A stretch of 50,127 bases of DNA, filler included, from Jimgerdemannia flammicorona (GCA_003990765.1; 2 parts of 2 records of this genome joined end to end with filler, not necessarily neighbours in it), one strand, 5' to 3'. Shown: positions 5,807-40,957, counted from the first letter of the whole stretch. Numbers and translations: made by a program. The notes: generated from the letters alone by a model not told the origin.

Positions 5807-5841
<35 letters not shown>

Positions 5842-9137: not shown

Positions 9138-9599
9138 TTACTTGAACTCCCAAGCTTCAACAATCTGTATCTCCTTGTACTGTGTAATTTGTATCATTAT
9201 GTTCTCCTAATGATGTCTCTTAATATGTCCAAAATCTTCTGGAACTGCTTTTTGGAAATAGGATAGGGCTACCTCATTATCTTTAAATAGCTTATTGACT
9301 TATTTGGTGATTGTGATCTGAGAGTGAGAGAGCTGATACTCTCTGATCCAGTCTTCTTTTTCCATTTCTGGCTATGAATTCAGTAGCTGTTCTAACTTGA
9401 AGTATTCTTGAAGCTCTGTCCAATTCTGATAGGCCTTGAAGTGTGAAATTCATGACAGATGTATCTGTACTATGCTTTGAATACTATCAAAGGATTCCTC
9501 CATTGTGGGTGGCTCAGTAGTATACCATTGTCTTTCTATGGCTTATTATATAGCACTAGTGATCTTGAGAGCTGTGGTCATACTTTATTGACTAGCCAT
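9138..9599 (-). pseudogene. Gypsy A accessory ORF3 (153 aa reconstructed), unknown function
   Basis: ATG at 9599 to TAA at 9138 in one frame; the 7 internal stops are all revertible by C>T/G>A. Homologous to the ORFs at 29013 and ~39739. Confidence 0.8.
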
Positions 9600-9647
9600 A
9601 ATACTTCTTGAGTCAGTTTCAGTAAATGATAGTGGAGATAATTATGC

Positions 9648-12600
9648 TTAAGAGTTTTTATAGTCAAAAGGTAGTCCTTTTTATATCTTATACAAGGTAA
9701 GGTCTTTCTCACTTAGGCTCTAGTTTTCATGACCATGAAGCTTCTACTATATTCTAATATACTAGAACTTTGTCTCCTATCTTGATAATCTCCAGAGGCT
9801 TGTGAACTTTTTCTGTATTATTTCATTATAGTGTCTGTACCTTGGTTATGTAATCCTCAGCCTTCTTTCTGATTTGGTATAGTCTTCATATTTCTCTATC
9901 TACATATTTCTATACAGTATCTCTATTGGATGATAGAGTTTCTTGAGAACCTTCTTCTCTGAATAGTATTTCCTGAGAGGTAAAATGGGTGCTTTATGAT
10001 CAAATATCCCAGAGAGCAGATAATACTATTGGTAGATAGTGATCTCAGTTTTCTTAGTTATCACAGATCTTGGTAATAATATTTTTGAGAGTCTTATTGA
10101 TTTTTTTCCACCTATCTATTTCCTTGAGAATGATATACTATATTCTGAATGTACTGGATCTTATACTTCTTATAGAGAACCTCAAAGAACTGGTTTACGA
10201 ATTCTATTCCTCTATCTATAGTTACTTGTGTTGGGGTCTTTAACTGGCAGATGATTTCTTTATGAAAGAAATCAGCAATTGACTGTGCATTAGCTTCCTT
10301 GAGGGGTCCTATCTCTATCTATTTTATGAAAAGGTCTATGATGATGATGATATATTGGTTGTCAGTCAAAGTCAAGAGTAGAGGACTAATCACATCTATT
10401 GCAATAAGAGCAAATAGTACTAGTTCTATATGTGCTAATCTTGAAGCTTGGTTTCATTGATCTTGTTTCTATTTCTGGTATTTGTCACATATCTTAACAA
10501 ATCATCTGATATCTTCCTCCATTCCTGACTACTATATTGTTCTTCTTACTTTATCATATGTGTTTATTCCTCCCAGATAGTCAAGTTTATATACTGATTT
10601 CATTACTTGCTCCTTCTTGTATTCTGGTATGACTAGTAGCTTTTCTTTCTTCAATATTTCTCCATTGGTTTTGAATTGTTTCCATGTTCTGTTGATAATC
10701 ATTTATATGCATTCTTCCAGATATTGGGGCATCTTTCACTATTCCAGATAGGTGATTATTCTATAATAAAGCTTCTTATTCATAGTTGATTTGCTGGTTG
10801 AAAGTCCTTCAGAATATCTGTGAGAGGGTATCTGTATTGGCATTGGTTCTTTCTGAGTGGTGCATAATGGTTATATCATATGCTTACAACTTCATATTCT
10901 ATCTGGCATAGATTCCTTTGGGTTGTTCAATGATCAGTAGCTAGGTAAGAGCTGAGTGATCTGTCTGAATGGTGAAGTGTCTTCTGGCAAGATAGTAGTG
11001 GAACTTTTCTATAGCCCAGATGACTGCAAGATGTTCCAACTTATAGGATTCATATTCTTTTTCAGCTCCTTGGGTTCATCAATTTAGATATATAATGATA
11101 TACTTCACTTTGTCTTTTTTTTGAGCTAGGACTGCTCTTAGTTCTTAGACACTTGCATCTGTCTGCAGGATAAATTCTTGAGTCCAATCAGGTCTTCTAA
11201 GGATATATAGGTGCCTGGGTCAGTCTGACCTTAAGTTCTTTGAATACTTTCTGTTGTCTGCTAGTCCATCAGAACTTAGTATTCTTCTTATTGAGTTCAT
11301 AGATTGGGCCTGTAATATTAGAGAATCCTCTGATAAATTGACAGTAGTATGAGGCAAGTCTCATGAAGGCTTGGACTTTAGTAACTGTGGTGGGCCTTGG
11401 GTATATTGCTACTACTTGGATCTTGAGAGGGTCTGTATATGTTCCATCTTGATTAATGATATGTCTAAGATAGATAATCTCAATTTCTGCAAATTTGCAT
11501 ATTATCTGCTAGATATGCTGCAGATGTTCTTCAGCTATCTTGCTATAAATAATAATATCATCTATATAAACTATCACCCATCTTCCTATGTCATAGTGAA
11601 AGATTTTATTCATTATTCACTGGAAGCTTGCAGGGGCATTGTATATTCCAAATGCCATTTTCAGGTAGATATAGATTCTGTCTGAGATGATGAAGACTGA
11701 TTTCTCACTTACTGTTTCTGTGAGTCTAATTTGGTGGAATCCTGAGTATAGGTCCAAGGTGCTATAGTATTGTACTTTATCTTCCAGAGTTATAAGGATG
11801 TTATTGATGAGGGGCAGTGATTGGCAATCCATCTTGGTGACTATATTGAGCTTTCTATAATCAATACAGAGTCTTGGTGTAAATTCTCCAGACTTATTTC
11901 CTTTCTTTGGAGCTAGTACAACTGGTGAAAACCAGGGGCTGCTGGTCTCCTTGATGATACCAGCTTCTTTCATCTACTTGATTTCTTCTCTGAGTCACTC
12001 TTGGTAGACTGATAGGACAGATCTTGCCTTCTGATAAATTGGTTCAGTATCTTCAGTATCTACATCATAATAGTAGTATAGAGTCTTTCTTTTGATATTC
12101 TTGAAGTCTGTGGCAAGGATATCCTCAAATTTATGGAATATTTTCTTGAGCTCCATCTTGAGTGAGAATTCATTTCCAATAGTATAGCTGTGCTTATTCA
12201 TAGTTTCCTCCTTTTTGTACTTTAGCTCAGTGATCTTGGTACTAGCAAATACTCCTCTTTCAGTATATCTGAATCTTTTCCTTCCTCTTTCTATTTCCTC
12301 TAACTTCTTGACTTTCATGATCCTTGGCTGAAGAACAAGAAAGATCAACATCTGTGTCAGTCAGTCCTTCTTTTTGATTGGAAATGGAATTATAGAATTG
12401 TGGTTTCTGATGATAAGTAGTATTTCTCTAATATAATCTGAATTGATGACTCCTCCTTCAATTGTGATTTCACTCCTAGCTAGGCTGCTTCTTGTCTTGA
12501 GGATTCCAATATAGTTCTTTGGAATGGTTATCTCCAGACCAGTTGTAAGTAGGGTAGTTACATATCTGAGGTTTGAGTATAGTTTCCTCTACTATGGCAA

Positions 12601-14744
12601 TATTCATTCTAGCTGTATTTTCTAACTTGTATTCTGGTATATAAAACTGCATCAGGATGAATATTCCGAATCTTGATCTTGATTTCATCTTCATCATCAC
12701 TACCTTTGAGAAGAGCTAGTGGTTCATCATCCTCTTCTTCTTTTATTTTCTTTACTTCTCTTGCCTGTTTCTTGAGAGTCTTCTCTGTTCTTTGGTGATA
12801 GATCTCTTTGATTTTGCCAGTACACTGGTAATACTCATTGATATGCTCCATATAGTATATTTAGATCTCATGGGGGCAGACTTCTTGTGGTATATATTCT
12901 TCTATAATCTTCTTGCATTAGTCTTCTTTGCTCATCCATCTGATTTTCTTCTTCTTTTTCTAGATTGTTACCATATAGGCTTCTTCTTGTTCACTCTCTT
13001 CTTTCTCTATCTCAGGCAGGACTCCTTTATTGATATTGATTGGAATTCACATCTTCTATCTGTGATAGATAATCTACATCTTCTGGGCATTCAGGTCAAT
13101 TATTGTCTTGGCTTTGTGAAGCCATTGATTGCTGATAAGGATATCATAATTGATTGTATTAGTCATGATTACATCTACTAGAATGGTTGCTCTCCCAAAC
13201 TTGATGGAAATATCTTGGATCTTTTCCAGAGGTGTGGCTCTTGTACCATCTGCTGTGACAAATACCAATTTGGTTGCTTCTTCAACTTTCCAACCTAGAC
13301 AGTCTGCTGCTTTCTTACTGAAGAGATATTCTCCTGCTCCTGTATCAATAATAGCCTTAAAGACTTTATCCTCAATTTGACAGGTTGCATAGGCAGAGAT
13401 CTTATAGTTGTCTTTACTTTCTTCTCCTAAGTCTTCTTGAATGTTGTTGGCCTCAGTTATCTTCCATTCTTGCTTCTTGGTTGTTTCAGCAAGTTTATAT
13501 CTCATTTGCTGTCTAAATGTAGGTATTTCTGTAAGCTAGCCAAAGGTTGCATTGACCTTTTGTTGACTGAGATCTTTGAAGATATCATACTTGAAGATCT
13601 TGGTTTTGTAAAGCTTCTTCTTCTTTTCTCCTTCACTGGCTGGAGTAGTTCCTTAGATGATATCTTGAACAGCCTATTCTAGCTTCATATCTTGATCTAT
13701 TTCTTCACCTTGACTTTCTATAGCAGTCTCTATCTGCTTTTCCACAGGATTCTTCTTGGGTATCTCTGGTGGTCTCTTATAGGGTTCTTTGCAGATATCT
13801 TTCTTAGTAGTCTGTGCAGAGTAGATCTTTCAATTTTCTTCATCTAATTCTCCAATCTTCTTAAAGATAATGATATTGGCCTATTCCTTATTTTGAGTAG
13901 CATTACTTAGCTATGCCTTGCATTTGGTTTCACTCATATATTTATATGAGTAGTGGTCTTCTTCTCTACAAGTATAGCAGATACTTCTCTTCTTATCTGA
14001 GGTGGTAGTGAATTTCTGAACTGGGCAGCAGTCTCTTCCTTTAATTTCCTTTACCACATCTCCTAGGTAGGCAGTCATTTCAGCAAACCTCTTGGCAAGT
14101 TCCTCCATGAGGTCACTATTTCTCTGTTGCTTAGTAGCTCTTAGTTGAGGTGTGTTTTGATTGATTACTATGATAGGAATTATACTAGTTGCCTTGAGTA
14201 CTTCAATTCTAACTCCAGTGACTCTCTCTATTATATAGTCTTGTGGGTGTCTGACTATCCAGTATTGCTGAGCATAGGTGACCTTCTATATCAGATCCAG
14301 GACTATTAGTGATGAGCAGATGGCCAGGGCTATCTTTGAGTAGATTCCTTTCATAAAGGTTACTTCAGCTACTTGATCTCTGATAGTGGCAGCATAATCT
14401 GCAAGAATTATCTGATATTAAATTCTGGTATAGAATGTGTTTGGATCCTCACTCATTCCTTAGCATATTGTGTTGAGCTGATTCTTCAGTGCTTGCTTGA
14501 TCTCATTTGTATTGTATATGGCTTAGAGCCAGGTCTTCTATACTACTAGCATAGTATCATAATCATTTCCTACATGGGTTGCAGCTGTGAATGATACTCT
14601 TATTGATCCTCAGAGACTAAAGAGCATAAGAGTTACTTGCTATCTTGCTGTCAGGCCTCTTACAGTAGTATATTGCTCAAAATTATCAATAAAGGTAATG
14701 ATTGACTCATCTAAAGTATAACCATGAAATACTGGTAATCTCAT
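9648..14744 (-). pseudogene. Gypsy A gag-pol polyprotein (decayed)
   Basis: Gag start MRLPVFHG, zinc knuckle CYTCREEDH, protease IIDTGA, RT (SPWFSPVVL, RLCIDYRKLN, YIDDII), RNase H (LQTDAS, TDHSAL) and integrase (IAIDVI). Confidence 0.93.
12258..12640 (-). pseudogene. dUTPase domain between protease and RT in Gypsy A
   Basis: TTGLEITIPKNYIGILKTRSSLA, GGVINSDYIREI, QMLIF and ERGRKRFRYT are decayed trimeric dUTPase motifs 2-5. Confidence 0.85.
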
Positions 14745-14858
14745 ATCTATCTTGTCTGAATGTCTCAGTTATATAGTTGTTTGGATAGTGGTGGTTATTT
14801 ATTATTTAGCTTAAAAGTGAGGGATTCATCTTAAATTACTAGTCAATAAACACTAAGT

Positions 14859-15329
14859 TATAATGTAGCAGATACTTAACCTTAGAAGTATGTCAGATTT
14901 CTATATCTTAAAAACTTGATCTTCTTTGACTCTACAGAGTCCTTAAGATATAGAGGTGGATGAGTTTGAAATATATCTACTCATAGGCTTACTAGTTCCT
15001 TTGCTTTCTCTTTGCTTTTGAACTATTTCAATCAGAGGTTTATTCACTCTAGATACTGGAGGTATTTATACAAGTTTGCTAACTATAAGGTAGCTAAGTT
15101 ATAACTAAGTTATGAGTCACTTTTACAAATATTAATCCTTGATATCTGTTAAATCTTTAACAATCATCAAGAATTAACATCTGTGAATTCTTGACATTTG
15201 TGAAAACTTTAACATTTGTAAAATAACTGCTATTTGTAAGGCTATACTATATCAGGAATTGGGTTCAGGTACTACAATCAAATATCTAATTCCCCTGGTT
15301 CTTATTCCTAATTCAGATCAACTATTACA
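14859..15329 (-). repeat. 5' LTR of Gypsy A
   Basis: Direct repeat of 8658-9096, followed on the minus strand by a decayed PBS (ACT-TAGTG, probably TGGTG/TGGCG) shared with Gypsy B. Confidence 0.92.
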
Positions 15330-15689
15330 ATATCAACATACTGAGCCTCTGTCATATATTGGACAGAATGACAGATTCCATTACTAAATAGTATAGTACA
15401 GCTACTGACTTTCTTAGGCTATATGAATTTCAGTTTTGTCTTTGCATTGAAATTGTTTTCTCTATATAGAGTTGAAATGAAGGTAGAATAGTGAGTAAAT
15501 AAGATGATTAAACAATTTAACTGAACATTAAGGATTTGAAGATTATGAAGGGTATACTTGCCATGTTGTGCAGTGATGCAAAAGCCAAAGAAACAAACTC
15601 CCTGTAGATCTCTATTGGCTATGTTTTTGCAAAGTGCAAGGCAATTGCAGTTGGAACATAGGGTGGTCTCATGAGAGGAAAGAAAACAA

Positions 15690-17060
15690 CACATGGATAA
15701 AAAAACAATATGTGAGTAAGAAAACAATGTGTGAGTAAGAAAACAATGCTTAATGAGAAAACAGTGCTTGGATAAGAAAACAATGCAAATGCATAATTAA
15801 GAAGACACTTCATGCATAAGAAAACAATGCTCAGGTAAGAAAACAACGCATTGGTAAGAAAACAGTGCGAATGCATGAGTAAGAAAACACTACGTATGTA
15901 AGAAGACAAATATGTGCATAAGAAAACAATGCTTGGGTAAGAAGACAACGCGGGTAAGAGAACAAGAATGGGTAAGAAAACAAGCGTGGGTAAGAAGTAA
16001 CGTGTTGGGTAAGAAAACAATGTGTTGGGTGAGAAAACAACACATTGGGTGAGAAAACAATGTGTGGGTGAGAAACAACATGTTGGGTGAGAAAACACAT
16101 TGGGTGAGAAAACAATGCGTTGGGACGCGTCGGGTAAGAAACAATGTATTGGGTAAGAAAACAACATGTTGGGTGAGAAAACAATGCATTGGGTGAGAAA
16201 AAAATGTGTTGGGATGCGTCGGGTGAAAAACAATGGTTGGGTAAGAAAAAGACGTGTTGGGTGAGAAAACAATACGTTGGGTGTGAGAAAACAATGTGTT
16301 GGGATGCGTCGGGTGAGAAACAACGTGTTGGGTAAGAAAACAACGTATTGGGTGAGAAAACAACACATTGGGTGAGAAAACAACACGTTGGGTGAGACAA
16401 CAATGCGTTGGGATGTGTCGGGTGAGAAAAATGTTTTGGGTAAGAAAACAACGTGTTGGGTGAGAAAACAATGCATTGGGTGAGAAATCAATGCGTTGGG
16501 TGAGAAATAATGTGTTGGGTAAGAAAACAATGTGTTGGGTGAGAAAAAAATAAGTTGGGTAAGAAAACAACGTGTTGGGTGAGAAAACAACGCGTTGGAT
16601 GAGAAAACATCGCATTAGGTGAGAAACAACGTGTTGGGTAAGAAAACGATGTGTTGGGTGAGAAATCAATGCGTTGGGACGCGTCGGGTGAGAAATAATG
16701 TGTTGGGTAAGAAAACAATGTGTTGGGTGAGAAAAAAATACGTTGGGTAAGAAAACAACGTGTTGGGTGAGAACAACGCGTTGGGTGAGAAAACATCGCA
16801 TTAGGTGAGAAACAACGTGTTGGGTAAGAAAACAATGTGTTGGGTGAGAAAACAACGCGTTGGGTGAGAAACAACGTGTTGGGTAAGAAAACAATGTGTT
16901 GGGTGAGCAAACAACGCGTTGGGTGAGAAAACAATACGTTGGGATGCATCGGGTGAGAAACAACGTGATGGGTAAGAAAACGACGTGTTGGGTGAGAAAA
17001 CAACGCGTTGGGTGAGAAAAAAAATGCGTTGGGACGCGTTGGGTATAATGCGTGTAAGAA
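15690..17060. repeat. Tandem satellite/minisatellite, ~21-bp monomer GGGT(G/A)AGAAAACAA(C/T)G(C/T)GTT with 30-bp variants and a ~187-bp higher-order duplication
   Basis: Roughly 60 visible monomers; the long ORFs in the track here are repeat artefacts. Confidence 0.95.
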
Positions 17061-18629
17061 AATGGGTGTGCATGTGTTAGAGAATATATGTGGGAGAAAG
17101 TGACACGAAGAGGTGACTTTCCAGGTCGTAACCATAATGCCAGCCCCCAACTCAATTGCCTTAGGCCAAAGCAAATAAAATCCAGGGCTACTAATTTGGA
17201 AAATCTTCGCCCAGCAAGAGTAGTTTCCAGTCTAGGTGGTTTGGACCGGTGGGTTAATCCGGCCAGCACTGTAAATATTGGGCCTCCCAAGCCAGAAAGC
17301 TAACCATGAACCCAATGAGCCACGCATAAACCCATTAGCCACGACTTTGTGATCATCAAGACCTTTATAGGCTGAGCTGTTTTGCAAATAATCGTCGTTG
17401 TTTCATTATCGTTTTTACAGGTTGGAACAGGATAAGTCTGTCCCATTTAGACAGATGGTAGATTAGTTTGACGTATATATATGAGCTGGAAAATTCGAAT
17501 CACCAGGAAAATAAATAACTCGAACGGCAGAAATCTCCAGATGAGCTATATATGATATCAACCTGGCTTTTTCTGAGAACCCTATGTTGCTCAAGAAAAG
17601 TAGCATACTGAACTATTAGGTCATCAATATGAGGCTTTCATTTCTTCTTCAGTGACGTAACTACCTACTACCTGAATATCTTTTTTTTCTTGATCAATAT
17701 AAGGATGTATCTCTAGATAGTGATAGTTGTCCAGCTTTACAAAATTATATAAGGTGCTTTTACATCATTTGTATTAGACTTCAGTCTATCTAATATATAT
17801 CTTATAGTAGCTAGTAATGATACAAATATCATATCAACTGCAGATAGGTTTATTTCTAATAGATAAATAGATAAATCTCTGAAATTACATTCTACTCCTC
17901 TATCAAGTAATTTCAAGATAGATCAATAGGGTAATTTAAGACTGATATACTTTTGTATTAAATTTATATCATTAATATATATATTAAAGTCATTTATTTG
18001 ATTATACATATAAGAGAAATGTTATCTCTCAAAATATCATCATAGTATATTGGTAGATTACAAGTAGTGTAATTGAAAGTATTATAATAAAAATTATAAA
18101 CTCAATAATCTTTTTTATAATTCTAATGATTTACTGAACAATCAAAATAAGTATAGTATAAATTATATATAGAATTATTAGAATGATAATAATATAGAAA
18201 ATTTCCATTCTCTCATTGAGAATTTCTATAGTACTAACTATAATATTGTAAATATCTTCAGTCTGATAATAAACCAACCAGATATTAGTAAGATATTTAT
18301 AGGTATTTCATAGAAATATCAGGCTTTGAAATAATATCAGAAGATGTTAGTATGAACTTATATCAAAGATAATTAGCTTTAGGAAAATAAGACTCTTTAT
18401 TTATAAATATATATTTCAAACTATTACTATCCAATAGCTAAATCTACATACAAACTAAAATTTTATTATAATAACCTAACAATTATTTGAAATTCTTAAT
18501 TTTGCTATTAGCCAATACTTTGAATAGATAAATATATAATGAAATGCAAGTTTTGGTAATCTTGTAGTTTATAGTTAATGAGCTCAGGAATTTTGACTTA
18601 TTACTACTAGCTCTATAATAATGTATAGA

Positions 18630-21600
18630 GTAATATATCAATTTTCAGTCAAAGTCAGGGGCAAGAGATCTATGATATCTATTGTTATATATTTGAAAGG
18701 TCTTGATTTGATTTTGCTCAATCTAGGGGCATGGTCTTTTTAGTCTTGTTTGTTCTTCTGGCATTAGTTATATTGTTTTACAAATTGTCTAATATCTTCC
18801 TCCATATTAGGCTACTATATTGTTCTTCTTACTTTATCATATATATTGGTTCCTCCTAGGTAGCCTTGCTCATATATCTCTTTCATTATTTGCTCCTTCT
18901 TGTATTTAGGGATAACTATGCAGTTGTTTCTTCTGAGGGTTTCTCCATTGATTTCAAATTGTATCTATATTTGTTCAATAATTGTTTTTATCTATTCTTA
19001 TAGATGTTTGGACATTTTATACTGTCTGATATATGTGATGATTCTATAATAGAATTCTCTATTCATGGTAATGACTAGTATTGGTAGTCCTTTGGGGTAT
19101 CTGTAAGAGTGTATCTGTATTGGCATTGGTTCATTCTGATCTATAGATGATTATAGTATCATATACCTATAGCTTCATGGTCTAGCAGATATAGATTACT
19201 CTTTATTCAGTAGTAGTAAGAAGCCAGATTAATACTGCATGGTGTGTCTGAATCATGAAATATTGTCTGGTCAGGTAATAGTAGAAGAGATCTATAGCCT
19301 ATATTACAGCAGTATATTCTAGTTTGTATAATTTATAATCTCTCTCTGATCCTTAGATTTCTCTGTTGGTATAGACTATAACATATTCAATATTGCCTGT
19401 CTTCTATATAAGGACTACTTTGAATCTACATAATAGCACAAGTATCTGTAGTATAAATTCCTTGCTCCAGTCAGGATGTCATAGAATTAGTACTTGAATC
19501 AGTCTTCTCTTGAGGTAATTAAACACTTCTTATTGAAGTTCCTTCTACTTAAAGTTAGCTTTGGCTTCCTTCTTGAGCAGCTCATAGAGGGGTCCTGTGA
19601 TCTTTAAGAAGTTTTATATAAATCTTCTATAGTAGGATACTAGTCCTAAAAAGACTCTCAGCTCTATCTAATTCTTGAGTTTGAGATATCTGGCTATGAC
19701 TTTGATTTTGGAGTGATCAGTGTGAGTACCTTACTCATTGATAATATATCCAAGATAAGTAATTTCTGTCTCTGCAAAGATGCATTTCTTTGGCTTGATA
19801 AACAGACTATGTTACCTTAGTCTTTTGAAGACTTCTTCAATATGTCTGAGGTAGTCATGTTCTGTTTTGCTGAAGATAATCACATCATCTATATATACTA
19901 TAATCTATTTATTGAGATTGTCTTTGAATATAGTATTCATCATTCATTGAAAACTTCTGGGAGCATTGTATATTCTGAATGGTATTCTTTATATAATCTA
20001 TATATCATCTGGGGTTATGATGGCAGAGCACTTTTTGACTTTCTTGGTCATTCTTATCTACTAGAATCCTAAGTATAGGTTGAGTATAGTATATCACTTG
20101 AGCTTGTCTCCAAGGTTTGTCTGAATGGCTATAATATTTGGAAGAGGTTGTCTATCCTTCTTGGTTACTGTATTGAGTTTTCAGTAGTCAATACAAAGCC
20201 TAGAAGAAAATTCTCCTGGCTTGCTTTCTTTCTTCAGAGCTAGTATGATGAGAGAGCCCCAGGGACTGATCTCTTTCTTGATTATTCCAGTCTTCTCCAT
20301 TCTATTATGTTCTTCCTTGAGCTATTCTCTATAGGCTGGTGATAGTTATTGAGTCTTTTGATAAATTGGTTTAGCATCTCTAGTATTAATATCATAAAAG
20401 AATTGGGGTTTCTTCTTCTTAATATCAGTCAGAGATGTAGTAAGCATATTCTTCTATTGATTTATAAGCTTTCTGAGTTCTAGTTTCTTAGTGAACTTCC
20501 TTCTGATAGTATAGCTATACTTGTCTAATACTTGCTCTGATTAGTGCTTAAGTTCTGTGATTTTAGTAGTCAGGGTATTACTTCTTCTGATGGATCCAAA
20601 TCCTTGTAGTCCTCTTTTAGTGATGGAGAGTTAGTTGGTTTCTATGATTCTTGGTTGAGTGATAAGAAGGACTAGTATTTGTACTATGCTGTCTCCAGTC
20701 TTGACTTCAAAGAAGATTGTTGAGTTCTGATTTCTAACTATTATTATGACTTTTCTTATATAGTCTGGATTGATATCTCCTCCTTTAATCAAGATATTGC
20801 ATTTTGCTATACTACTTCTTGCTTTAAGTATTCTGACATATCCTTGAGATAAGGCTATAGCTAGGCCAGTTTCAAGTAAGGTACTTGTCTGTAGTTTGAT
20901 GATTGTATCAGAAGTGCTAGTAAGGTCAAGTCTAGCAGTATTCTTGGTTTTATATTCAGGTATTCAAGTATCTTTATCAAATCTCTTGACTCTAAGTATG
21001 AGATCTTTCTCATCATTAGAGTCTTCTCAGAGAGCTGGGGGTTTGTCATCCTTTTCCTTCTAGATCTGCTCAAGTTGATTCTTCAAGAATACTTTTTTTC
21101 TTTATCTGATTTGTTTCCTAACTTCAGTGATACATTGCCAGTAGTCATTTAGGTATTCACTATAATACATTCTGGTAATATAGAGATATCATTCTTGAGG
21201 AGCATATTCATCAGTGATCTTGAGATACTATTGCTTATCTGTCAGAGGCATCTTCTGCTTGGGTTTCGATGTGTATATGTAGACTTCAGTTTCTTCACTA
21301 CTTTCTTCCTCTATCTTAGAATACAGTCCTTTATTGATACTGATGGAGATTCTAAGCTTCTTGCCATGGTAGATAATCTATATCTTCTGAGCATTCATGT
21401 TGATTATGGCCCTTGCTTTGCTGAGCTACTAGTTGCCAATCAATAGATTATAATTTATTATACTAGTTATAATTATATCAATAGGGATAGTTGTATTACC
21501 AAACTTGATAGAGACATCTCTGATATTTCTCAGTAGTGTGGTATAAGTTCCATCAGTAGTGATAAATATAAGCTTTATAGCTTCTTCTATCTCTCAACTA

Positions 21601-23716
21601 AAGTGGTTGATGGCTCAAGTATCCTCCAGCTTCTGTATTAATGATAGCTTTGAAGATATTGTTTTTGATCTGGCAGATAGTATAGGCTGAGGTCTTGCAA
21701 TTATTCTTGCTCTCAGTGCTATCACTTTCTTCATCCTCCTCTTCTTATTCAGCATTATTGATCTTGATGATCTTGTATTTTTAGCTTCCTTCAACCTCAG
21801 ACAATCCTTTCCTGAGTTGTTGTCTGAATACAGGGATTTCTATCAGTTGTATAAAGGTCACACTGGCCTTTTATTCCTTCAGGTCCTTGAATATATCATA
21901 CTTATACTACTTGGTCTTATGAAGTTTCTGTTCTTTCTTTCCTTTACTAGCTGGGGAGGTTTTTTGGATGATTTCTTCAATAGCTCATTTTAGGTCTTCA
22001 TCTTACTCTATATCTTCAGTGACTTTTTCATTGATAGTGATCTTGAGTACTTCAGTCTTCTTTGGGTGTCCTACTGACTTCTTCTTATTATAGAGTACAC
22101 TTCTTCTCTTGGTCTTCTTTAATTCTATAGAGTAGGCTGACCATTCTTCATCATTAGCTTCATTACCAATTTCTTCAATAGTGATGATGTTTGCTTATTC
22201 TTGGGCCTTAGTTACATTACTTGGCTGAGCTCTGACCTTTGTTTTGATTATGCAATCCTTTGCAAAGTGGTCTTCTTCTCTGCATCTAAAGCAAGTATAG
22301 GTCTAGATGTGAGTTTCTTCAGTGGTTACTATTATAAATCATTGGGTAGATCTTGGTTTCCTTATTTCTTTTATAGTATCACTTAGATGTGTGATCATTT
22401 CAGTAAACTTCTTAATAAGCTCTATTATTGGGTCCAGGTCTTCTTATTATGGTAGAAGTTGGGTCTTATTAATTATTACTATTGGGAGAGTAGATGTGAC
22501 TCACAGAATGTTCTTGAGCTATACTCCTGTGATTCTTTCTATTATGTAGCCTTGTGAGTATCTGGTAATCTAGTAACATTAGGTATAGACTACTTTTCCT
22601 AGTAGGTCTAGTAGTATAGGGGTCAATCATATAGCAAGAGCTATTTCTGAATAAATATCTTTTATGAAGGTTGATTCTGCAATTTAATCTCTGATAGCTT
22701 TAGCATAGTCTACTAGAACTATCTAGTAGTAGATCCTAGTATAGAAGGAGTTTGAGTCTTCAGCCATGCCTTGTACAATAGTATTGAGTTGGTCTCTGAG
22801 AGCTTGTTTGATTTCATCTATATAGTATATAGTTCAGAGCTATATATTGATGTTTGAAAGTCTGATATCATCATTTTCTATAATTGTTGCTCTAGCAAAG
22901 GCTGCTCAGACAAGTCCTTATAGGCTTACTGGTAGGAGGGCCAGTTGTTGTACTATTGTCAGTATGTAAATAGTAGTATACTATTCAAAATCTTTTATAA
23001 ATATAATGATTGACTCATCAGTAATATATATATTCTTGGAATATGGGGGGCCTGATATCTATCTTGAGGTCTTAGTTATTGTTAGTTACAGTTGTTTATT
23101 ATTTAGCTTGAAAGTGAGAGATTTATCTTAAATCACCAGCTAATTAGCACTAAGTTGTAACATAGTAGATATTTATTCCTTAAAGTATATTATACTTCTT
23201 TATCTTATCACATAGAGTTCCAGACTCTAATATTCTTGATTTGGTAAGTTGTCTCTTATTCTTGAGTATGAAGCATAGTACTGAAGATAACTTTTATCAG
23301 AATACTACTCTCTTTAAGAAGTTGCTTTATCTTTAAGATATTTTGAACTGAGATTTATTTACTTGAATTACTGGGTATTTATATACTTTGTTTTGATACT
23401 GTAACTAAGTAATAGTGGCTAAGTTATACTATATTATCTTTCAACAATTATAAATATGAGAATAGAATACAGAAATAGTTTATAAGTAGTGAAGTCTTAA
23501 TCAGATAATTGCTACAGATATAGCTAACTATAGTAAGGTTAAGTAATATAAGCCAGATATAGCTATTGTTCATTATATAGTTCCAAATATATGTATGCTA
23601 TCATCTTCTAAGCCTCTGAGTATAAAACTAAGTATGAGTATGAGTATATAGATAAAGTTAAAAGAGTTACCTATTTATATAATTTATGCTCAGCCTATTT
23701 TGTATACTATATTACA
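18630..23716 (-). mobile_element. Ty3/Gypsy element B (5' LTR 23156-23716, gag-PR-dUTPase-RT-RH), truncated early in integrase
   Basis: Colinear with A. LTR reads TGTAAC...ATTACA followed by ATAT. RT motifs RLCIDY*KLN and VDDVII; integrase breaks after ITIDIIDLLPLTLTEN. Confidence 0.92.
20585..20963 (-). pseudogene. dUTPase domain between protease and RT in Gypsy B
   Basis: TARLDL (AGxDL), TGLAIAL..GY..LKARSS, GGDINPDY, TGDSIVQI and KRGLQGFGS cover all five dUTPase motifs. Confidence 0.9.
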
Positions 23717-23825
23717 ATATATAATTATATAGTTTTTATATATAATCTATTTAGATTTAACTAACTTATTTATATTAGAATAATATGAGATAACTATAAA
23801 TAGAGATATAGAATCTCAAGCTTTT

Positions 23826-25018: not shown

Positions 25019-25118
25019 NNNNNNNNNNNNNNNNNNNNNNNNNNNNNNNNNNNNNNNNNNNNTTAATTAATTAANNNNNNNNNNNNNNNNNNNNNNNNNN
25101 NNNNNNNNNNNNNNNNNN
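25019..25118. other. Assembly gap with artificial linker N44-TTAATTAATTAA-N44
   Basis: Symmetric 100-bp spacer with stops in all six frames; contiguity across it is not guaranteed. Confidence 0.95.
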
Positions 25119-27220: not shown

Positions 27221-28300
27221 GGAATAGATCTCTATGGACTTCATTGTGCAACTACTCCAAACCAAAAATAGAAAAGATGCAATTGTTGTCTTTGTGGACT
27301 ATCTCAGCAAATAAGCCTACTTTGTACCAACCACCACCACTGCAATGGCACCAGAGATAGCCACACTCTTGTTTGATAACATTTTCCACTATCATAGTCT
27401 TCCTAAGATAATTGTTAGTGACCATGATCCGAAATTCATCAGCCATTTTTGGAAAGCCCTCTATGCACACCTTGGAACAAAACTTGCACTATCTATAGCC
27501 TTTTACCCAGAAACTGATAGCCAAACTGAAGAATGAACCAAACTCTGGAATAAATACTAAGGAACTATGTTTCCTACAGACAAGATGACTGGTATGAATA
27601 CCTCACTGCAGTCGAGTTTGTCTATAACAATAGCAAGCAAGCCTCTCTTGGAATGACCCCATTCTTCGCCAACACTGGACAAAACCCAAACACCCCTTTA
27701 ACACTTATCTGAACCACTGAAGAACTCTCCATAGTTGAAGCTGTTGAAGAATTCTTACTCCGAATGTGCAATCTAAGCCAGATCACAATTGAGAATTTAT
27801 CGCAAGCTCAAGAACAACAGTCACAGTATGTTAACCAATACTGCCAAGAAGAAACCTTCGATATTGGAGAAAAAGTTCTACTAGACATCCAAGGATACCA
27901 AGTTGACAACCTCAAGTACAGACTATCTATGAAGCTAAACAGTAAGTTCATTAGACCATTTGAAGTCATCGCACAAGTCTCTCCTACCTCCTACAAACTG
28001 GTACTACCAGACACCATTAAGATTCACCCAGTCTTTAAGGTCCAATGTCTCAAGTAATACAATGAGAATGATGACAAGCTATTTCCAAACTGGACCACTA
28101 AACCACCTGCACCTGTCATTATTAATGACCAAGAAGAATACAAAGTTGAACAAATCCTCAACAAACATGGCCACAAGAACCACCCAGAGTACCTTGTCAA
28201 ATGGAAAGGTTACCCGATTCATGATGCAACCTGGAAACCCAAGACCAACCTCCAGAATACTACTGACTTAGTTCAGGAATATGATTCCTTGAACACCTAA
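27219..28300 (+). pseudogene. Integrase C-terminal part with chromodomain
   Basis: EEYKVEQILNKH...EYLVKWKGYPIHDATWKPKTNLQN is a canonical chromodomain. Confidence 0.92.
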
Positions 28301-29012
28301 AACCAAATACTCTGTACCTATCCGTACATACTATATATTATTGTCCTGAACACTATAATTATCAAAAAATCAAGAACTCAGTAAAATAAGACAAGAATAC
28401 TGACTCTCTGGAAAAAGTAGCAAAACTGAAAGCCAGCCTATTCTCCCCATACCACTAGTGGGAAATGAGGCATAGACATTTAAGAAGATTCCATAGAAGA
28501 AATTCTCTAGCAGTGAATGATATCAGAATCACTTCCAGCATACAGCATTGAACACATGACCCTTTAATGTATGAATCCAACACATTAGGTAACTATACTA
28601 TGAGCATGCCACTTTCTGAGAAAAATGGACTTTACTAGACTTTTGATCTCCCAAATGGTGTAACAACACTAGAACAAAATTAGAAGGCCCTGATGAGGAC
28701 ATCGAAAGCTAAGAAGGGGAGAGTTGTAAGTACACAACCTCCAAGCCACTGAAATTACATGTCACCTCTGAACAAGCTACTGAAATCACATGTGACCTCT
28801 GAACAAATCTAGAAATCACCTGCTCGATCACAAAGCTGAGTCAAACCAAAGTCACAGTGCACAAAGCTGAGTCAATACAAAGTCACAGAATACAAGATTC
28901 ACATAAATGGAATCTTACCAATCAGGACCAAATACATATATACTGAGCACCGAGATGTGTCAAATCAGAGAACCAAAACAAACAACAACCACAACTTCCA
29001 AAACACACAAAC

Positions 29013-30436
29013 ATGATCACCAAGATCTACACCTGTATCTGCACTGACATTTAGAATGCCATTATCAACTGAGCCACACCCCCTCTACCCCTTATGAATA
29101 TCCATAGCCTAGCACCCCTCTAGTTTGTGGAAGCCCAATGGAATGCTCTGAACATGCTTAGCGAGGCCCATCGAATCAGACAAATCTTAAGGTACTATCA
29201 GATCAGCTGTCTCCTGGAAGATATGGTTGAACACCACCACAATACAGACATTACCCAGATGTCTCAACACCAGAAGCTCATTGCCTACAAACATCAAGAA
29301 CTCTTCTATGAGTATAGTACTGTTATTCCCCACCTCCGAGTTACCACAGCCAAAATGGTTGCTACTCTGTCCTATGGCCAAATCGATGACATGATACAGG
29401 AACTCAACCACAAGTATCTCGAGTATGTCGAAACCACAGACAGAACCTTCCCACACCCCAATGATCATATCCTGCAAATGCCCCAAGTTGGATATGCTAT
29501 GAAGGATATCTATGATATAATCTACTTCAATAAAGACAAAGCAGAAGACAATAATCTCTCTGACACTGACATGATCTCTAGCCAAGGATCTCTGCCAATG
29601 CTGATCACACCACCAACCATACCGATGAACTTACAACAATTCATAACAGCATATGAGACATATTGGGATAATGACCACTGGCATGAATACCAACCTGTGT
29701 TTACTCCCGATTACTTCAACTACAATGAAGAGACCAGAGAACACAACCTGTACCTCTAGACTAGTGCTCCCAACAAATCGAATCAAATCAAATCAAATGT
29801 CCAATTCGATTCGAAGTTCGATTGAACCTTAATTTTCAAAATGTAATAACTCGACGAAAACACATCCAAATTTAACGTAATTTAGCTTGTTAGATTCACC
29901 GTATTAATGTGATTCTAACAAGCTAAAGTACGTTAGATTTGGATGAGTCTATGCTGAGTTATTGCATTTTGAAAATTAGGGTTCGAATCAGACCCTCAAT
30001 TCGATTTGACTTTTGATTTGATTCGAATTGATTCAAATTGAAAAATCCCCAATTCGATTCGACTCATTTGGGAGCACTACTCGAGACAGCCCTTGAAATT
30101 GAACCAACCACTCCACCACCTAAGTATGAGCGACATGAACCACAGCTGCCAGCTTACTACAACCCCACGACTCATAGTGCTATAACCCACAGAAGGTATG
30201 CAGACCGCGAATTCAATGAAAGTGAAGATGATGTACTCCTCCTTCACCCACCAACACCTTATCCAGCATATGAGACAGATGATGCTATTCTGTGGGATGG
30301 TGACAAAGTTTCAATGTATTATTACCTCAGTGAACAAGGAGAAGTAATCCGCGAACCACTCTTCCTAGATGACTACTTCATCAGAGATGATGCAATTGAT
30401 GGTGATATCATCGAAGACTACCCAGACAGTGCCTAA
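29013..30436 (+). pseudogene. Accessory ORF (365 aa reconstructed) inside the putative LTR, split by a hAT-type MITE
   Basis: Removing the MITE and one TSD (326 bp) fuses track ORFs 29127-29759 and 30038-30436 in frame (NLYL|ETALEIE). The ATG at 29013 is in frame, with three revertible stops. Confidence 0.8.
29762..30079. mobile_element. hAT-type MITE, 318 bp
   Basis: TIR TAGTGCTCCCAA...TTGGGAGCACTA; 8-bp TSD CTC(T/G)AGAC; subterminal ATTCG/CGAAT repeats; palindromic core. Confidence 0.9.
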
Positions 30437-31099
30437 ACCTATAAATAGCCTAGCCATCATACTATAGTTAGATTAGCCTTATATAACGTGACTGTAAACT
30501 GACTCAGCAGTCAGATGATCTCTTAACATGTCAGATCACACTTGTACTATGTGACTGCATTCCCACTCAGCAAGGCACTTAGTGCTACATCCATATTCAG
30601 CATAGTCCAGATAGCCCCTCACTAGTATAAATATCCCCTCCCCCAAACCTCAGAATCTCAGACTAAAACACGCCAGAATATTCCTGAATACTTCCCAACA
30701 ATATCTCTTCACACAACTACTCCTAGTATAGCAACATTATGAATAGCAAATAAACCTATTTAATAACCCACAAACTACTCTTAAGTAAATCTGCTCCCCA
30801 TTAGGTCCCACTCCTAACCCATCACGAAATTTCCTAATTGGGCATTGTCTGCAGCAATATGCTGATTCAACTAAGCTAGTCTTAGTTTCTTGAACTTTCT
30901 GAAATATAGAAAATCCTGAACATCCAGAACTAGTCTGAAAAAGGACTTTGGTTGAGACATTAACCTGATTTGAAATCAATATGTACTCCATATGAAATTG
31001 ATCTTGACCATAAGAAAACAGTCTTCTATTATATCCAGAACTTCCAGAAAACCCTTCTAGAACTATGTAACAGTTATCCTAAAAAGCAACCCTCTTACA

Positions 31100-33174
31100 T
31101 TTTCAGTGAATGATGAACAGAGTCTTCAGCAATAAGATTGGAAAATAGCTCTTTATCTATGTTGATGATGTGATCATCTTCAGCAACACTGTACAGGAAT
31201 ATATCAATCACATACAGCTAGCCCTCAAGAAGCTGAAGGAGTATGGCCTTTACATCAAGCCCAAGAAATGCAAGTTTGCAGCTCAAGAAATCACCTATCT
31301 AGGACACCTTATTAACCAGACTGGAATCCACACAGACCCTATGAAGATTGAGGCTGTTGCAGTCTATCTGAGACCCAGAATGACTACAAAAGTCTATGCC
31401 TTCCTTGGACTGGCCAGGTACTACAGAAGATTCATCAAAGGATACTCCAACATTACAGCACCTATCTGCAAGCTACTGAAGAAGGAAACCAAATTTGAAT
31501 GGACCAAGAAATGCCAAGAAATCTTCAATAAACTCAAGACCAGATTGACCAAAGTACCTATCCTCAGAAGACCAGATTGGAATCTAGAATTTGTCTTGTA
31601 GACAGATGTGAGTACTATAGGACTTAGAGCAGTCCTAGCTCAGAAGAAAGATTGACATGAATATATCATCTCCTATATAAGCTGAGATATCCACAGAGCA
31701 GAACAGAACTATGAGTCATGTAAGCTTGAATGCTTAGCAGTAGTTTGGGCAGTAGACAAGTTCCACTACTACCTAGCCAGGAAATACTTCACCATACAAA
31801 CAGACCATTCTGCTCTTGTCTGGCTATTCCACACTCTGAACCCCAAAGGAATATATACCAGATGGATCCACAGGTTGCAAGAGTATGACTGTTCTATTAA
31901 GCACTGCTCAGGAAGAACTAATATCAATGCTGATATACTCTCAAGGACACCCTGAAATACCTCTATCAAATTACTCAATATGAATAAAGAGTTATACTAT
32001 GGATTAATCAGCTATCTTAGGTAGCAGAAGATACCCAACCATCTTGAACCCTGGACAATCACCATCATCAGCTAAACTTGGAAACAGTTTGATCTAGACA
32101 ACACTATACTCAGAAAAAAAGAAAAGCTAGTAATACCCAAATACAAAAAGTATCAAGTAATAAAGGAAGTACATGAGCAAGGATACCTAGGAGGACCAAT
32201 ATATATAATAAGGCAAAAAGAACTATATGGTGGCCTAAGATAGAAGTAGACCTGTGCCAATTTGTCAAAGAGTATGATAAGTGTCAAAAACAGAAATAGG
32301 ATCAGCAAGACCAGGCACCTGGGTCATCAAGAATTGAGCCTATTCCCTGCCACCACATCACAATAGATATTATTGGGCCACTACCAGTAATATTATCAGG
32401 AAACCACTATATTATAGTTATTGTAGACCTCTTTACCAAATGAATAGAAGCAGGAGCACTACAAGAAGCCAATGCCCTCTCTATAGCTGACTTTCTATAT
32501 TGAGAAATCATCTGCCACTACAAGACACTGAAGCAAATCACAACAAACTATGGCACAGAAATTGTCAATGGATTCCATGAGATAATGTTTTAGAAATATA
32601 AGATCCAGCATATCAAGACTACTACATACCACTCTCAAGGAAATAGACAGACAGAGAGAACCAACAAGACCCTTAATAACATCATGGTAAAGATCTCAGA
32701 GACATATGAGAATTGGGATAATTATCTCTCAACTACCCTCTCTGTCCTACAAGACATACAGTCACAGAGCACACACTTTACCCCAAGGAAACTGCTCTTT
32801 GGAGTAAAAGATTCTGATGGAACCTCAGCTACAAATCTAAACCTAACTTGGATTTAAGTCAATGCAGAAATCTGGAGACTATACCAAATCAGGAAGAAGA
32901 CTGAAGATTACATCATTAAGTTACAAGCACTGATAAGGAAGAATACAGAAAAGAATCACAAGACCTAGAATCTATCCAAATTGGAGAAAAGGTCCTACTG
33001 TATCAAAATATGGTAGAAGCCTCATGGTCATGAAAACTGGAGCCCAAATAGGAAGTACCCTTCTATGTTCAAGATATCAAGAAAACTACCTTCTGGCTTA
33101 GAAAAATCTCAGAGACCATACAGCCTACCATAGTACATAGGAACAGACTCAAGAAGTACCATGAACCTATATAA
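31100..33174 (+). pseudogene. Gypsy D pol fragment (RT-RNase H-integrase)
   Basis: Motifs as above; integrase ends VHRNRLKKYHEPI*. Confidence 0.9.
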
Positions 33175-33302
33175 GAGAAGCAAAACATGATAACTACCTA
33201 TGAGATTCTAGTCTGCAAACACACCTTTCTCAGCTAACATTCATGTTACACATACTTTACAACATACCCTCAAGTCGTTTATTGGAGAAAGGTGATAAGG
33301 AA

Positions 33303-35326: not shown

Positions 35327-35358
35327 AGATAGACTAGATAAAAACACTATACTTTAAT

Positions 35359-39002: not shown

Positions 39003-39433
39003 TGGGAGGAAGACTGTATATTTAACAATAGAATGGTAATAAATGGTAGAGTCTGAGAGACTATAAAAAAAAAAAAAAAAAAAACAAAAAAAAAAAGAGA
39101 TTCTAGTCTGCAAATTGTAACAGCATGTCCCATGACCAGCAGGCAATCAGTCTGGACCATTCTCTAAGGGATATAGCACTAGCAACTACTCATCCATGAG
39201 ACTTTCGAAGCCAGAGGAGTTTGAACCATCAACTGATTAGGCAAGATCAGAATCAGGCCCTTGCTCTATATGAAAGGAGCAACCCTTCACAATCACACCA
39301 AAATATATAGGGAAGATGCCAGCCCATAAACACCACTTTTCAACCCCTTGCCAGAGGTTATGGGATCAGAAATTTTTTTAGGACTAGACCAATGAATAAG
39401 GATGCTCGAGAAGATCCTTATTTAGGAGGAAGA

Positions 39434-40957
39434 TAAAATGGTGACCCCAGAATGATGACATCAGCACAGGAGACAGCCTTTTCTTACAAGTCACCAGATT
39501 GTAGTACAAGAAGATCATACAGTATATGAGATGAGTAATGATGACTAACTGTGAGTCATTGTGACCATAGTTCAGATATCTTGAGGAATATAAAAAAAGG
39601 ATCAAGGAACTGCAGTATCAGTAACCAATAAGACCCACCAATCTCAAAATAGCTCAAAGACTTACCACAAATGAAATACCTGCTGCTTGCCAAACCTCAA
39701 GGTCAAGAAACCACCAAGATATCTTAGTTGAAGAAAGGATATTCCAAGACATCAGAAGAGCTATGAGAACTCACTCAAAAAGGACTCCTAGTGTCAACCT
39801 CAGTACTAGTGACCCTTATCATTATATCCTCCACTACTGTGAAATGGAAACAAGGATCACCATAGTTACTGAATGCCTCTAAATGTGATAGGAGTATGAA
39901 ATTGGAAACCTCCTCTGCTGGGAGTTTCCACAGGCCAGTCCCCATGAGTTATAAGATGCCACTCCTATGGATATACATGAAGCAAGGACAGTTAAGAAGA
40001 TCCATCAGATCTTCAGACATGCACCATAGTTGATCCCCAACTTAGAGTATATTAGAGTCTCAGATTTCAGAGACCTGTCATTCCACCATATCAATGTACT
40101 AGAAACCAGGGTAGCTACAGAAGCCTAGTCCACTATCACTCTCAATAGTGATAAAGTAGAAGACTTCTGGCATTCCATCCTCCAGGATAACCCAGACCAA
40201 TTCCTGTAAGGATTGATCTCAGTATTCTAAGGCCCTAGCATCCAGATTAGACCTCTCCAAGACCCCACATTTGTCTCCTATTTTGTGAAAGAGAACCCCA
40301 TAGACAGGAGAGCCCCAGACCTCCTTCCTACCACTGCCAAACATGATGACATTATGAGTGATGACATCATCTCATGCAATATTGAAGCATGCAAAATACA
40401 TAATAATGATGAATTTGCAGATCTCATCTCCTTCAGTGATGATGAGGATGAAGCCCCTATTGTCTTAAACATTCTGCTCTGAAATTCTTTGGTTACTCTG
40501 AGTTATGTCAGCACCAGCATTCTGATGTAATACTGAATTATTTCAGTACTATTTTCCTATACCACTGGAATTATACCAGCATCCTGAACCTATACAACCA
40601 TCAGTGCCGACCCTGGAACTTAGCAGTTTTGCCTGTCCTGGCATTTTATTTTAGTTATTGGAATTTATATTTAGCTTTATATCTTAGCAATCATTGAATT
40701 AAATTTTGTATAAATACTCCTCTTATTTCTTCCGAAATAAAGTCAGTCCATTCAGTCTACTCAGTTCAATATATATACTTCCTTGCAAGCAATCTAAGAG
40801 ATAACAATACAGTTTAAAGATAAGAAGTTGGAGGACTATAAGACCTTGGGAAGGCACTCCAATATGAACTTACTTATAACAAACTTGAGTTAGTCTAAAA
40901 GATATACCTTGAAGAGAATTCAGTATATTTGGAGGACTTAGCGACCACTATGTAACA
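39434..40957 (+). repeat. Putative long 3' LTR of Gypsy D (~1.5 kb), containing the accessory-domain ORF
   Basis: PPT-like AGGAGGAAGA at 39424-39433 followed by TAAAATGGT (compare A: AGGAGGAAGT-TGTGATGGT). TATAAAT at ~40709, AATAAA at ~40736 and an ACA end. The start is inferred from a decayed TG. Confidence 0.55.
39526..40482 (+). pseudogene. Gypsy D accessory ORF (start uncertain; same frame extends to ATG 33187 if LINE d is removed)
   Basis: A single frame with revertible stops; contains the shared domain at 39739-40113 and an acidic tail. Confidence 0.75.

Follow-up and report, generated by a model that had tools for sequence, protein, structure and literature searches.

Do retrotransposons of different lineages in one fungal genome share an accessory gene, and where in the element do they carry it? 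The question is raised by a 50,127-nt stretch of the Jimgerdemannia flammicorona genome (the window), in which three stretches of degraded coding sequence associated with Ty3/Gypsy long terminal repeat (LTR) retrotransposons, labelled A, C and D, had been predicted from the nucleotide sequence alone to encode one unrecognised domain of about 125 amino acids (aa). We find that each stretch belongs to an open reading frame (ORF) with intact relatives, and we modestly favour the reading that the three are N-terminal, all-helical domains of about 115–125 aa from three diverged subfamilies of a single Ty3/Gypsy accessory gene.

Intact relatives of three degraded reading frames

The retroelements of the window are nested and have been damaged by transition-only mutation. 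The original prediction had been made after reverting C>T and G>A stops, a premise that agrees with the two LTRs of element A, which are 86.7% identical and differ by 52 transitions versus 2 transversions. As this LTR pair supports, the host genome undergoes transition mutation of its repeats that resembles repeat-induced point mutation (RIP-like mutation). By translating 9186–9563 (minus strand), 29037–29405 (plus) and 39739–40113 (plus), we reproduced all of the quoted motifs, which fall within the following reading frames:

9138–9599, minus strand: A-type ORF3, 153 codons plus stop, with 7 internal transition-type stops; 62–73% identity to intact relatives
29013–29761, plus strand: first part of the C ORF, with ATG at 29013; 79–84% identity to protein P0004
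30088–30436, plus strand: remainder of the C ORF, closed by the TAA stop at 30434–30436, from alignment with protein P0003
39676–40482, plus strand: D ORF, 268 codons plus stop TGA at 40480–40482, with 8 internal transition-type stops; 66–69% identity to protein P0007; seven relatives

We searched for relatives with HMMER against 1.84 billion representative proteins, and the metagenome protein sets yielded 13 relatives of the A type (153 aa), 2 of the C type (365 aa) and 7 of the D type (271 aa). For A, 7 of 10 candidates were kept. The D query retained 1 of 1256 candidates, P0007 (271 aa, E = 4e-108, 66% identity). For C, we used the open 211-aa part of the ORF (29124–29756) and obtained four proteins at E ≤ 0.001, the true relatives being P0003 (7e-52, 65% identity) and P0004 (9e-41, 84%); the other two, P0005 and P0006, are tandem-repeat proteins with 14 and 6 matching stretches, and we discounted them as repeat-inflated. 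A profile search kept 21 of 5089 candidates, comprising 13 A-type, 7 D-type and 1 C-type proteins. Pattern searches added no relatives, whether derived from alignment A2 and run on metagenome contigs (74 stretches matched) or from alignment A7 and run on viral contigs (24 stretches matched). A locus search with the protein P0017 returned two loci, the contig L001 described below and L002; the latter matches only P0017 residues 9–52 (39% identity, 10001–10126) on a 23-kb contig whose two strands are both densely filled with overlapping ORFs, and we judged it a chance match.

Intact relatives that keep the same start and stop positions show that, at the level of sequence, each of the three ORFs is a real gene. 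The initial Met of P0004 corresponds to window position 29013 and the end of P0003 to the TAA at 30434–30436, and alignment with P0007 places the D ORF at 39676–40482, with ATA as its start codon in the window and ATG in the relatives. The reversion of stops was likewise borne out: 17 of 19 internal stops align with Trp, Gln or Arg in the intact relatives (by majority residue, 6/7 in A, 3/4 in C and 8/9 in D, where the ninth is the natural stop). So was the Gly predicted in the second motif, which relatives read as YFKLGQLL and YQIGRLL. The proposed extent of the domain survived in part, in that the N-terminal parts of all three appear distantly similar, but it is only the N-terminal portion of the longer C and D ORFs, covering residues 9–131 of the former and 22–146 of the latter.

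A-type ORF3 is an integral part of its element

We next turn to the best-preserved context, element A, whose parts lie as follows:

8677–9097, minus strand: 3' LTR of element A, from nucleotide self-comparison
9098–9106, minus strand: polypurine tract (PPT) AGGAGGAAG, directly before the 3' LTR (LTR start 9097); the same motif precedes the LTR of L001
9140–9138, minus strand: stop codon TAA of ORF3
9592–9594, minus strand: first pol-frame stop (TAG), 3 nt after the ORF3 ATG
9599–9597, minus strand: ATG of ORF3
9600–14911, minus strand: internal region with gag, protease, dUTPase, reverse transcriptase (RT), RNase H and integrase and with no chromodomain, from Pfam
14912–15330, minus strand: 5' LTR of element A, from nucleotide self-comparison

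The Pfam assignments here and below come from a six-frame scan of three sub-regions of the window, with 1–8600, 15500–25200 and 42000–50127 outside it.

Because the pol-frame TAG lies 3 nt past the ORF3 ATG, the pol and ORF3 frames overlap. The same arrangement of ORF3 3' of pol and 5' of the PPT recurs in L001, a 6479-nt metagenome contig that carries a near-intact A-like element with zf-CCHC gag, protease, dUTPase, RT, RNase H and integrase. Its ORF3 (153 aa, 5795–6256) starts in the Kozak-perfect context ACCATGG, 44 nt before the end of the integrase frame, and the PPT and LTR start, the same as those of A, lie about 40 nt past the ORF3 stop. The LTRs of both elements are about 420 bp long and hold no ORF.

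Comparing L001 with the window, we found that ORF3 aligns over 462 nt without a gap, with transversions distributed over the three codon positions as 13, 2 and 21, whereas in the adjacent LTR 26 of 183 columns contain gaps. For the same pair, ORF3 is 68.6% identical in amino acids versus 55–71% for pol domains. The gapless alignment, the codon-position bias of a gene under purifying selection and the pol-like conservation together show, as judged from this sequence comparison, that A-type ORF3 belongs integrally to a gag–protease–dUTPase–RT–RNase H–integrase element and is under selective constraint there.

Two further observations concern these elements. The dUTPase of element A lies between protease and RT at 12260–12564 (minus strand; Pfam 1.5e-13, and 2.9e-28 in L001). 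Another ORF3 ends within the first 76 nt of L001 (...IEAWEFE*), where its PPT also lies, followed by the LTR that acts as the 5' LTR; this may reflect either two tandem elements with one LTR in common or a wrap-around in the assembly, and the two LTR starts differ in sequence.

Distant similarity among the A, C and D domains

Profile–profile comparison of the intact families carries the case for a shared domain. With alignments enriched in relatives, hhalign paired A with D over 104 columns (P = 4.5e-4, z 6.5), D with C over 113 columns (P = 0.0059, z 5.0) and A with C over 52 columns (P = 0.053, z 2.2), scores that were reached by 0, 1 and 2 of 110 column shuffles, respectively. Thin alignments gave P = 0.0047 for A–D (0/120 shuffles), 0.075 for D–C (7/120) and 0.042 for A–C (3/120), and the scores climbed as relatives were added (A–D from 25 to 31, D–C from 17 to 24). 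All three pairwise alignments share one register, running through EYx[IL]GxLL and the block [LM][SD]..[QE]....[KR][KR]IH.[LV]F..(IP.L). That register departs from the original prediction at one point: ITSAIQQAI, proposed as the first motif of A, is probably out of register, since hhalign and MAFFT both pair ERMFQDIRRAM of D with EESFDSIQSIV of A, and C and D hold about 22 more residues than A before the EY..G.LL motif. Scanning the six-frame window (100,250 residues) with a hidden Markov model (HMM) of the A family returned five non-self hits, the best being the C domain (29190–29339), with the D domain (39991–40086) also among them, in register; an HMM of the C family had the D domain among its four non-self hits.

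Set against these results is a rival account, in which all three ORFs are genuine accessory genes with no common origin and their motifs reflect chance likeness among short helical, low-complexity-like sequences. Several observations weigh on its side and against a common family. The similarity claimed for the three stretches, moderate when intact relatives are compared by profile, is at chance when the raw mutated window sequences are compared directly: tblastn gave no A–C or A–D match at E ≤ 10 and only E = 0.17–0.96 for C–D, and shuffles equalled the Smith–Waterman scores in 606 of 1000 cases for A–C and 148 of 1000 for A–D (for C–D, 15 of 1000 shuffles and 5 and 3 of 798 decoy windows, self-overlapping ones included). 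Codon scoring tolerant of transitions likewise gave no signal on the raw stretches; an A–C value of z = 4.4 under that scoring was a product of its positive-mean scheme and was gone once scores were shifted, so we discarded it. Between intact relatives, BLASTP gave E = 0.041 over 65 aa for P0008–P0007, 0.12 for P0008–P0004 and 27 for P0007–P0004. The hhalign probabilities are low (33% for A–D, 6% for D–C and 1% for A–C, at an Neff of 1.2–1.6), the A–C link on its own is marginal, and a three-sequence HMM of the C family missed D. The relatives are short, being metagenome fragments from contigs of 0.5–3 kb, and may derive from one species complex, in which case they are not independent lineages. 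The proteins also differ in length (153, 271 and 365 aa) and in placement relative to the PPT.

Unrelated genes would, however, have to account for scores that shuffled columns so rarely reach, for a single register across three pairwise alignments, for two of the five non-self hits of the A-family HMM falling in register on the C and D domains, and for scores that rise with added relatives. We therefore consider unrelated origins unlikely and distant homology of the three domains probable on these comparisons. The hhalign alignment did not reach past the N-terminal domain into the tails; BLASTP of P0007 against P0003 set LPQDPTFV-SYFVEENVID against LIEEPLFIDNYFIRDDVID, in the C-terminal tails, at E = 0.11. 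A comparison of the upstream flanks of the C and D ORFs found no similarity.

The C ORF lies beyond the polypurine tract of a chromovirus

The original prediction had placed the domain in both chromodomain and non-chromodomain lineages, and the Pfam content of the carriers agrees, C being a chromodomain element and A a dUTPase-bearing element without one. Its position relative to integrase and PPT was to be mapped, and here the families part: the A-type ORF begins inside the 3' end of pol and stops short of the PPT, but the C and D ORFs both follow it. The region around C is laid out as follows:

27225–28310, plus strand: chromovirus C fragment with integrase core, SH3 domain, chromodomain and pol stop, from Pfam
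28711–28723, plus strand: PPT of chromovirus C, AAGAAGGGGAGAG, followed by T and then TGTAAG
28725–31099, plus strand: probable 3' LTR of chromovirus C, TGTAAG...CTTACA, with 6-bp inverted termini
29754–29761 and 30080–30087: 8-bp target duplication of the insertion below, CTCTAGAC and CTCGAGAC
29762–30079, plus strand: palindromic miniature inverted-repeat transposable element (MITE), 318 bp, interrupting the C ORF

In chromovirus C, Pfam recognised the integrase core (rve, 27225–27500) and, both within 27866–28285, SH3_Tf2-1 (1.6e-13) and Chromo (3.3e-13), followed by the pol stop at about 28310; the element is truncated at its 5' side by a long interspersed nuclear element (LINE) and the assembly gap at 25019–25118. 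The C ORF lies between this pol stop and the terminal CTTACA at 31099. Leaving out the MITE restores its frame against P0003, for a total of 365 aa, and the empty site is present in metagenome runs X1, X2 and X4, where 29755 is joined to 30084. Tandem repeats (28740–28900) and a TATA box (CATATATA, 28935–28942, 71–78 nt before the ATG) stand upstream of the ORF, and an AATAAA (30749–30754) stands 313 nt past its stop.

The putative LTR that contains the ORF is 2375 bp long; with the MITE and one copy of its target-site duplication removed, its length is 2049 bp. Its CTTACA end is 1 nt short of position 31101, where A-like RT homology resumes; a metagenome contig that joins unrelated LINE sequence to 28727 implies a unit boundary there; and metagenome read depth is higher over the putative LTR than over the chromovirus pol. 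On the simplest reading, 28725–31099 would be the 3' LTR of a chromovirus inserted into an A-like RT, with the C ORF inside that LTR. A gene borne by an LTR, of the type of sag in mouse mammary tumour virus, would lie wholly within it, and hence in both LTRs; for C, the PPT, TGTAAG at 28725, CTTACA at 31099 and the RT junction at 31101 enclose the whole ORF, in the one putative LTR copy of the window. The window lacks a 5' copy because chromovirus C is cut by the LINE and the N gap at 25019–25118.

Two side observations belong to this region. The MITE has arms that are about 79% complementary, terminal inverted repeats TAGTGCTCCCAA and TTGGGAGCACTA, and an 8-bp duplication as in hAT-type elements. 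Contigs from runs X3 and X4 join 28186, within the chromodomain, to about 28654–28677, so that they are without some 470 nt including the pol stop; the joint may mark a variant with a deletion or an alignment mediated by repeats.

The D ORF follows an A-like element cut by a LINE

The D ORF stands downstream of a composite region with these parts:

31101–33172, plus strand: element A2/D, from the C-terminal half of RT through RNase H and integrase as far as the pol stop, with no chromodomain, from Pfam; 66.8% nucleotide identity to A
33202–33219 and 39097–39114: 18-bp target duplication of the LINE, GAGATTCTAGTCTGCAAA
33220–39096, plus strand: LINE of 5.9 kb with APE endonuclease, RT and poly(A) tail, directly after the A2/D pol stop
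39115–39432, plus strand: 3' internal end of A2/D behind the LINE, with an A-type ORF3 remnant and an A-like PPT
39424–39432, plus strand: PPT of A2/D, AGGAGGAAG, from a motif search

Soil-metagenome contigs hold the uninterrupted form of A2/D, with 33213 joined to 39131 in run X1 and to 39118 in run X3. D had been counted among three different Gypsy elements, but its element is not a kind of its own, nor is the D ORF an ORF3 following the integrase of that element. The element is A-like and is cut by the LINE, it retains a decayed A-type ORF3 of its own, and the D ORF lies beyond its PPT, starting about 240 nt past it. The remnant of ORF3 is seen, for example, as HQLIRQDQNQALALYERSNP at 39227–39290, a weak HMM match (iE 2.7), and the segment of L001 from ORF3 stop to LTR start aligns to 39393–39460 with a score of 17, versus a maximum of 16 in 200 shuffles. 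A TATA box (TATAAAAA, 39589–39596) precedes the D ORF, and an AATAAA (40736–40741) follows 254 nt past its stop.

The same order of PPT, TATA box, ATG, stop and AATAAA is therefore found in both C and D, with the TATA box 70–90 nt upstream and AATAAA 250–310 nt downstream. That the C and D genes sit in long LTRs after the PPT, each as a self-contained cassette, is supported but not proven by this layout. A competing explanation makes the two ORFs cargo of separate nested units, such as solo LTRs or non-autonomous LTR elements of another family, inserted into the LTRs of their hosts. Both ORFs begin 240–290 nt past the PPT or LTR start, a position at which A-type elements, with their ORF-free LTRs of A and L001, hold no ORF; A2/D already has its own ORF3 remnant; read depth over the ORFs is 1.5–2.5 times that over neighbouring pol; and the window is heavily nested, with the MITE and three LINE insertions. 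Yet the C unit starts right after the PPT, carries perfect 6-bp inverted termini and abuts the interrupted host RT, as one LTR would; we found no second internal pair of termini or target duplication around either ORF; and the layout recurs in two unrelated host elements. On this evidence, nested units seem rather unlikely.

Placement within LTRs has its own difficulties. The placement in C draws on one PPT, one set of 6-bp inverted termini and one junction, for a unit that is single-copy in the window, and depth inside it is uneven (in run X1, about 500–800 over the ORF and 1200–1860 over the last 700 nt). For D, the A-type LTR end motif is present only in A itself and visual inspection of 40441–42060 found no LTR end, which leaves room for a nested insertion; the D ORF would thus lie either inside a long LTR of A2/D or in a nested unit.

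A bolder version would place a TATA–ORF–AATAAA cassette in long LTRs of two unrelated fungal Gypsy lineages, one a chromovirus and the other a non-chromovirus with a dUTPase. Its product, a protein with a helical domain and an acidic tail, would be a putative transactivator or anti-silencing factor and a homologue of the ORF3 that overlaps pol in another lineage; the gene would have moved both between lineages and between internal region and LTR, and its carriers would count as "complex retrotransposons", in which a solo LTR could go on expressing the regulator. Taken as a whole we think this chain improbable.

Features of the protein and possible functions

We found no Pfam family at E ≤ 1 for six intact relatives, in agreement with the description of the domain as unrecognised and with an ORF that does not come from gag, pol or env. 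Its separateness from env was also upheld by hydropathy: the maximum over 19 aa (Kyte–Doolittle) is 0.19–0.97 in five relatives, so there is no transmembrane-like stretch and the protein is not env-like. A sequence search of the PDB gave seven rows, all at E ≥ 0.33. In the ESM Atlas, the own model of P0007 has a predicted local distance difference test score (pLDDT) of 0.35 and the nearest clusters score 0.80–0.83 for P0007 and 0.90–0.93 for P0004; some clusters were common to both lists, and none carried an informative family.

The prediction that the module is helical fared better in outline than in confidence. AlphaFold2 built it all-helical, with six helices, but at a pLDDT of 53–56 (56.2 for the A family alone and 53.4 with all three families). 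Adding the C and D sequences raised pLDDT in the shared core (residues 61–110) from 61–69 to 66–78, which also speaks for homology of the three families, and the number of residues at 70 or above from 7 to 30. The charge layout is uneven: the first 60 residues of D-type proteins are basic (13 K/R, 5 D/E) and the rest is acidic (net −21), the C-type extension has a net charge of −36, and A-type proteins end in ...EAWEFE.

We tentatively propose that the gene regulates transcription or silencing of its own element. The helical domain would bind to nucleic acid or to a host factor; the C-terminal tail, acidic and rich in aromatic residues, would recruit transcription machinery; and the protein might thereby boost or de-repress transcription from its own LTR, like the 3'-end regulatory genes of complex retroviruses. 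The acidic aromatic tails, the basic N terminus of D and the tandem repeats and TATA box upstream of the C ORF are possible signs of such a role; only charge layout and gene position favour the anti-silencing or transcription-factor role that had been suggested. Against the proposal stands its derivation from composition and analogy only, together with the low AlphaFold2 confidence, the absence of Foldseek matches to the PDB at E ≤ 0.001 (413 rows at E ≤ 10), and the weakness of its sole DNA-binding lead. That lead, HTH_Tnp_Mu_2 (PF09039), matched residues 5–63 of A-type proteins in 2 of 17 members at 14.8 and 13.0 bits (E = 0.031 and 0.11), below the gathering threshold of 20.5 bits, and we rejected it as a family assignment; retroviral transactivators (Tas/Bel1, Tax, Tat) gave no Pfam match in any relative. 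The regulatory reading is accordingly a doubtful one.

The main alternative is that the domain serves as a structural or replication cofactor, such as a second Gag-like protein, a nucleic-acid chaperone or a cofactor of integration or targeting. The overlap of the A-type ORF with the integrase end, which makes a frameshift fusion to integrase conceivable, would suit such a role, as would the strongly basic start of D-type proteins and conservation as strong as that of pol. It sits less well with the conserved start ATG in its perfect Kozak context in L001, which argues for a separate protein, with the long acidic tails of C and D, and with the chromodomain that the C element already has for targeting; Pfam scans also found no Gag, capsid or zinc-knuckle signature. 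We rate a cofactor role as unlikely.

Other features of the window

The remaining elements of the nest are these:

about 18567–23207, minus strand: second A-like copy, truncated at its 3' side, from similarity to A
41026–41039 and 41354–41367: 14-bp target duplication of the LINE fragment below, with 1 mismatch
41040–41353, plus strand: LINE 3' fragment, 5'-truncated, with poly(A), downstream of the D ORF

Further LINE-like sequence of the same family occupies 1–5841, 23827–27100 and 41624 onward. The sense strand of this family has a GC skew of +0.4 to +0.49 (G over C), for which symmetric RIP-like mutation does not account. Between element A and the second A-like copy lies an array of degenerate 20-bp tandem repeats of about 1 kb (15936–17016), whose minus strand holds long open frames, one of them 15890–17299 (469 aa). 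The sequence at 7896–8268, about 80–87% identical to the LTR of element A and adjoining its 3' LTR, may be a solo or truncated LTR. Two runs of N (25019–25062 and 25075–25118) make up the assembly gap, which may hold the missing 5' parts of chromovirus C and of its A-like host element.

Relation to known systems and significance

Accessory genes are what makes retroviruses "complex", and additional ORFs (aORFs) are found in plant Ty3/Gypsy elements as well; to our knowledge, accessory genes have rarely been documented in fungal retrotransposons. Complex retroviruses carry genes at their 3' ends, among them tas/bel of foamy viruses, sag within U3 of mouse mammary tumour virus and nef, which overlaps U3, of HIV. 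The ORFs described here resemble these in lying 3' of pol and reaching into, or lying within, the 3' LTR, in encoding a small non-structural protein, and in the transactivator-like pairing of a putative binding domain with an acidic tail. They differ in that the six relatives match no Pfam family and in having a fungal-type host and no env, so the likeness is one of analogy and not of membership. VANC proteins, to which the domain had been likened in function, are anti-silencing proteins of plant VANDAL elements, DNA transposons of the Mutator-like element (MULE) group. Both would be transposon-encoded accessory proteins proposed to counter host silencing, but VANC is borne by plant DNA transposons and the carriers here are LTR retrotransposons. 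We rejected membership in VANC, there being no Pfam match (whether Pfam holds a VANC model was left unchecked) and the carriers not being MULEs.

Among Gypsy elements, a figure legend of a 2010 study marks an unlabelled "additional ORF", and the same study describes a dUTPase between protease and RT in fungal Gypsy elements (PMC2864245). The aORF or ORF3 described there likewise is a conserved extra ORF at the Gypsy 3' end that is unlike gag, pol and env, and the dUTPase is placed as in element A; the description there defines no sequence family (PMC2864245), so that the two are compared by description, whereas here a probably homologous domain links three subfamilies, of which two follow the PPT. 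In bdelloid rotifers, ORF3s of LTR retrotransposons are described as common to diverse retroelement types (PMC5408684). They share with the present family the recurrence of accessory ORFs across distinct LTR-element lineages in one genome, a recurrence that implies capture or exchange in both cases; by the descriptions given there, they differ in host kingdom, position and domains (PMC5408684).

Full-text literature searches found no description of the domain reported here. That LTR elements can carry extra ORFs is already known, and what would be new is the family itself, its sharing between chromodomain and non-chromodomain elements, and its possible LTR-borne position. Transition-stop reversion, as applied here, can recover genes from RIP-like wreckage, and the ORF family would account for orphan "hypothetical proteins" in soil metagenomes. 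The family would give a handle on how fungal elements control their own transcription or escape genome defence in heavily repeat-mutating genomes.

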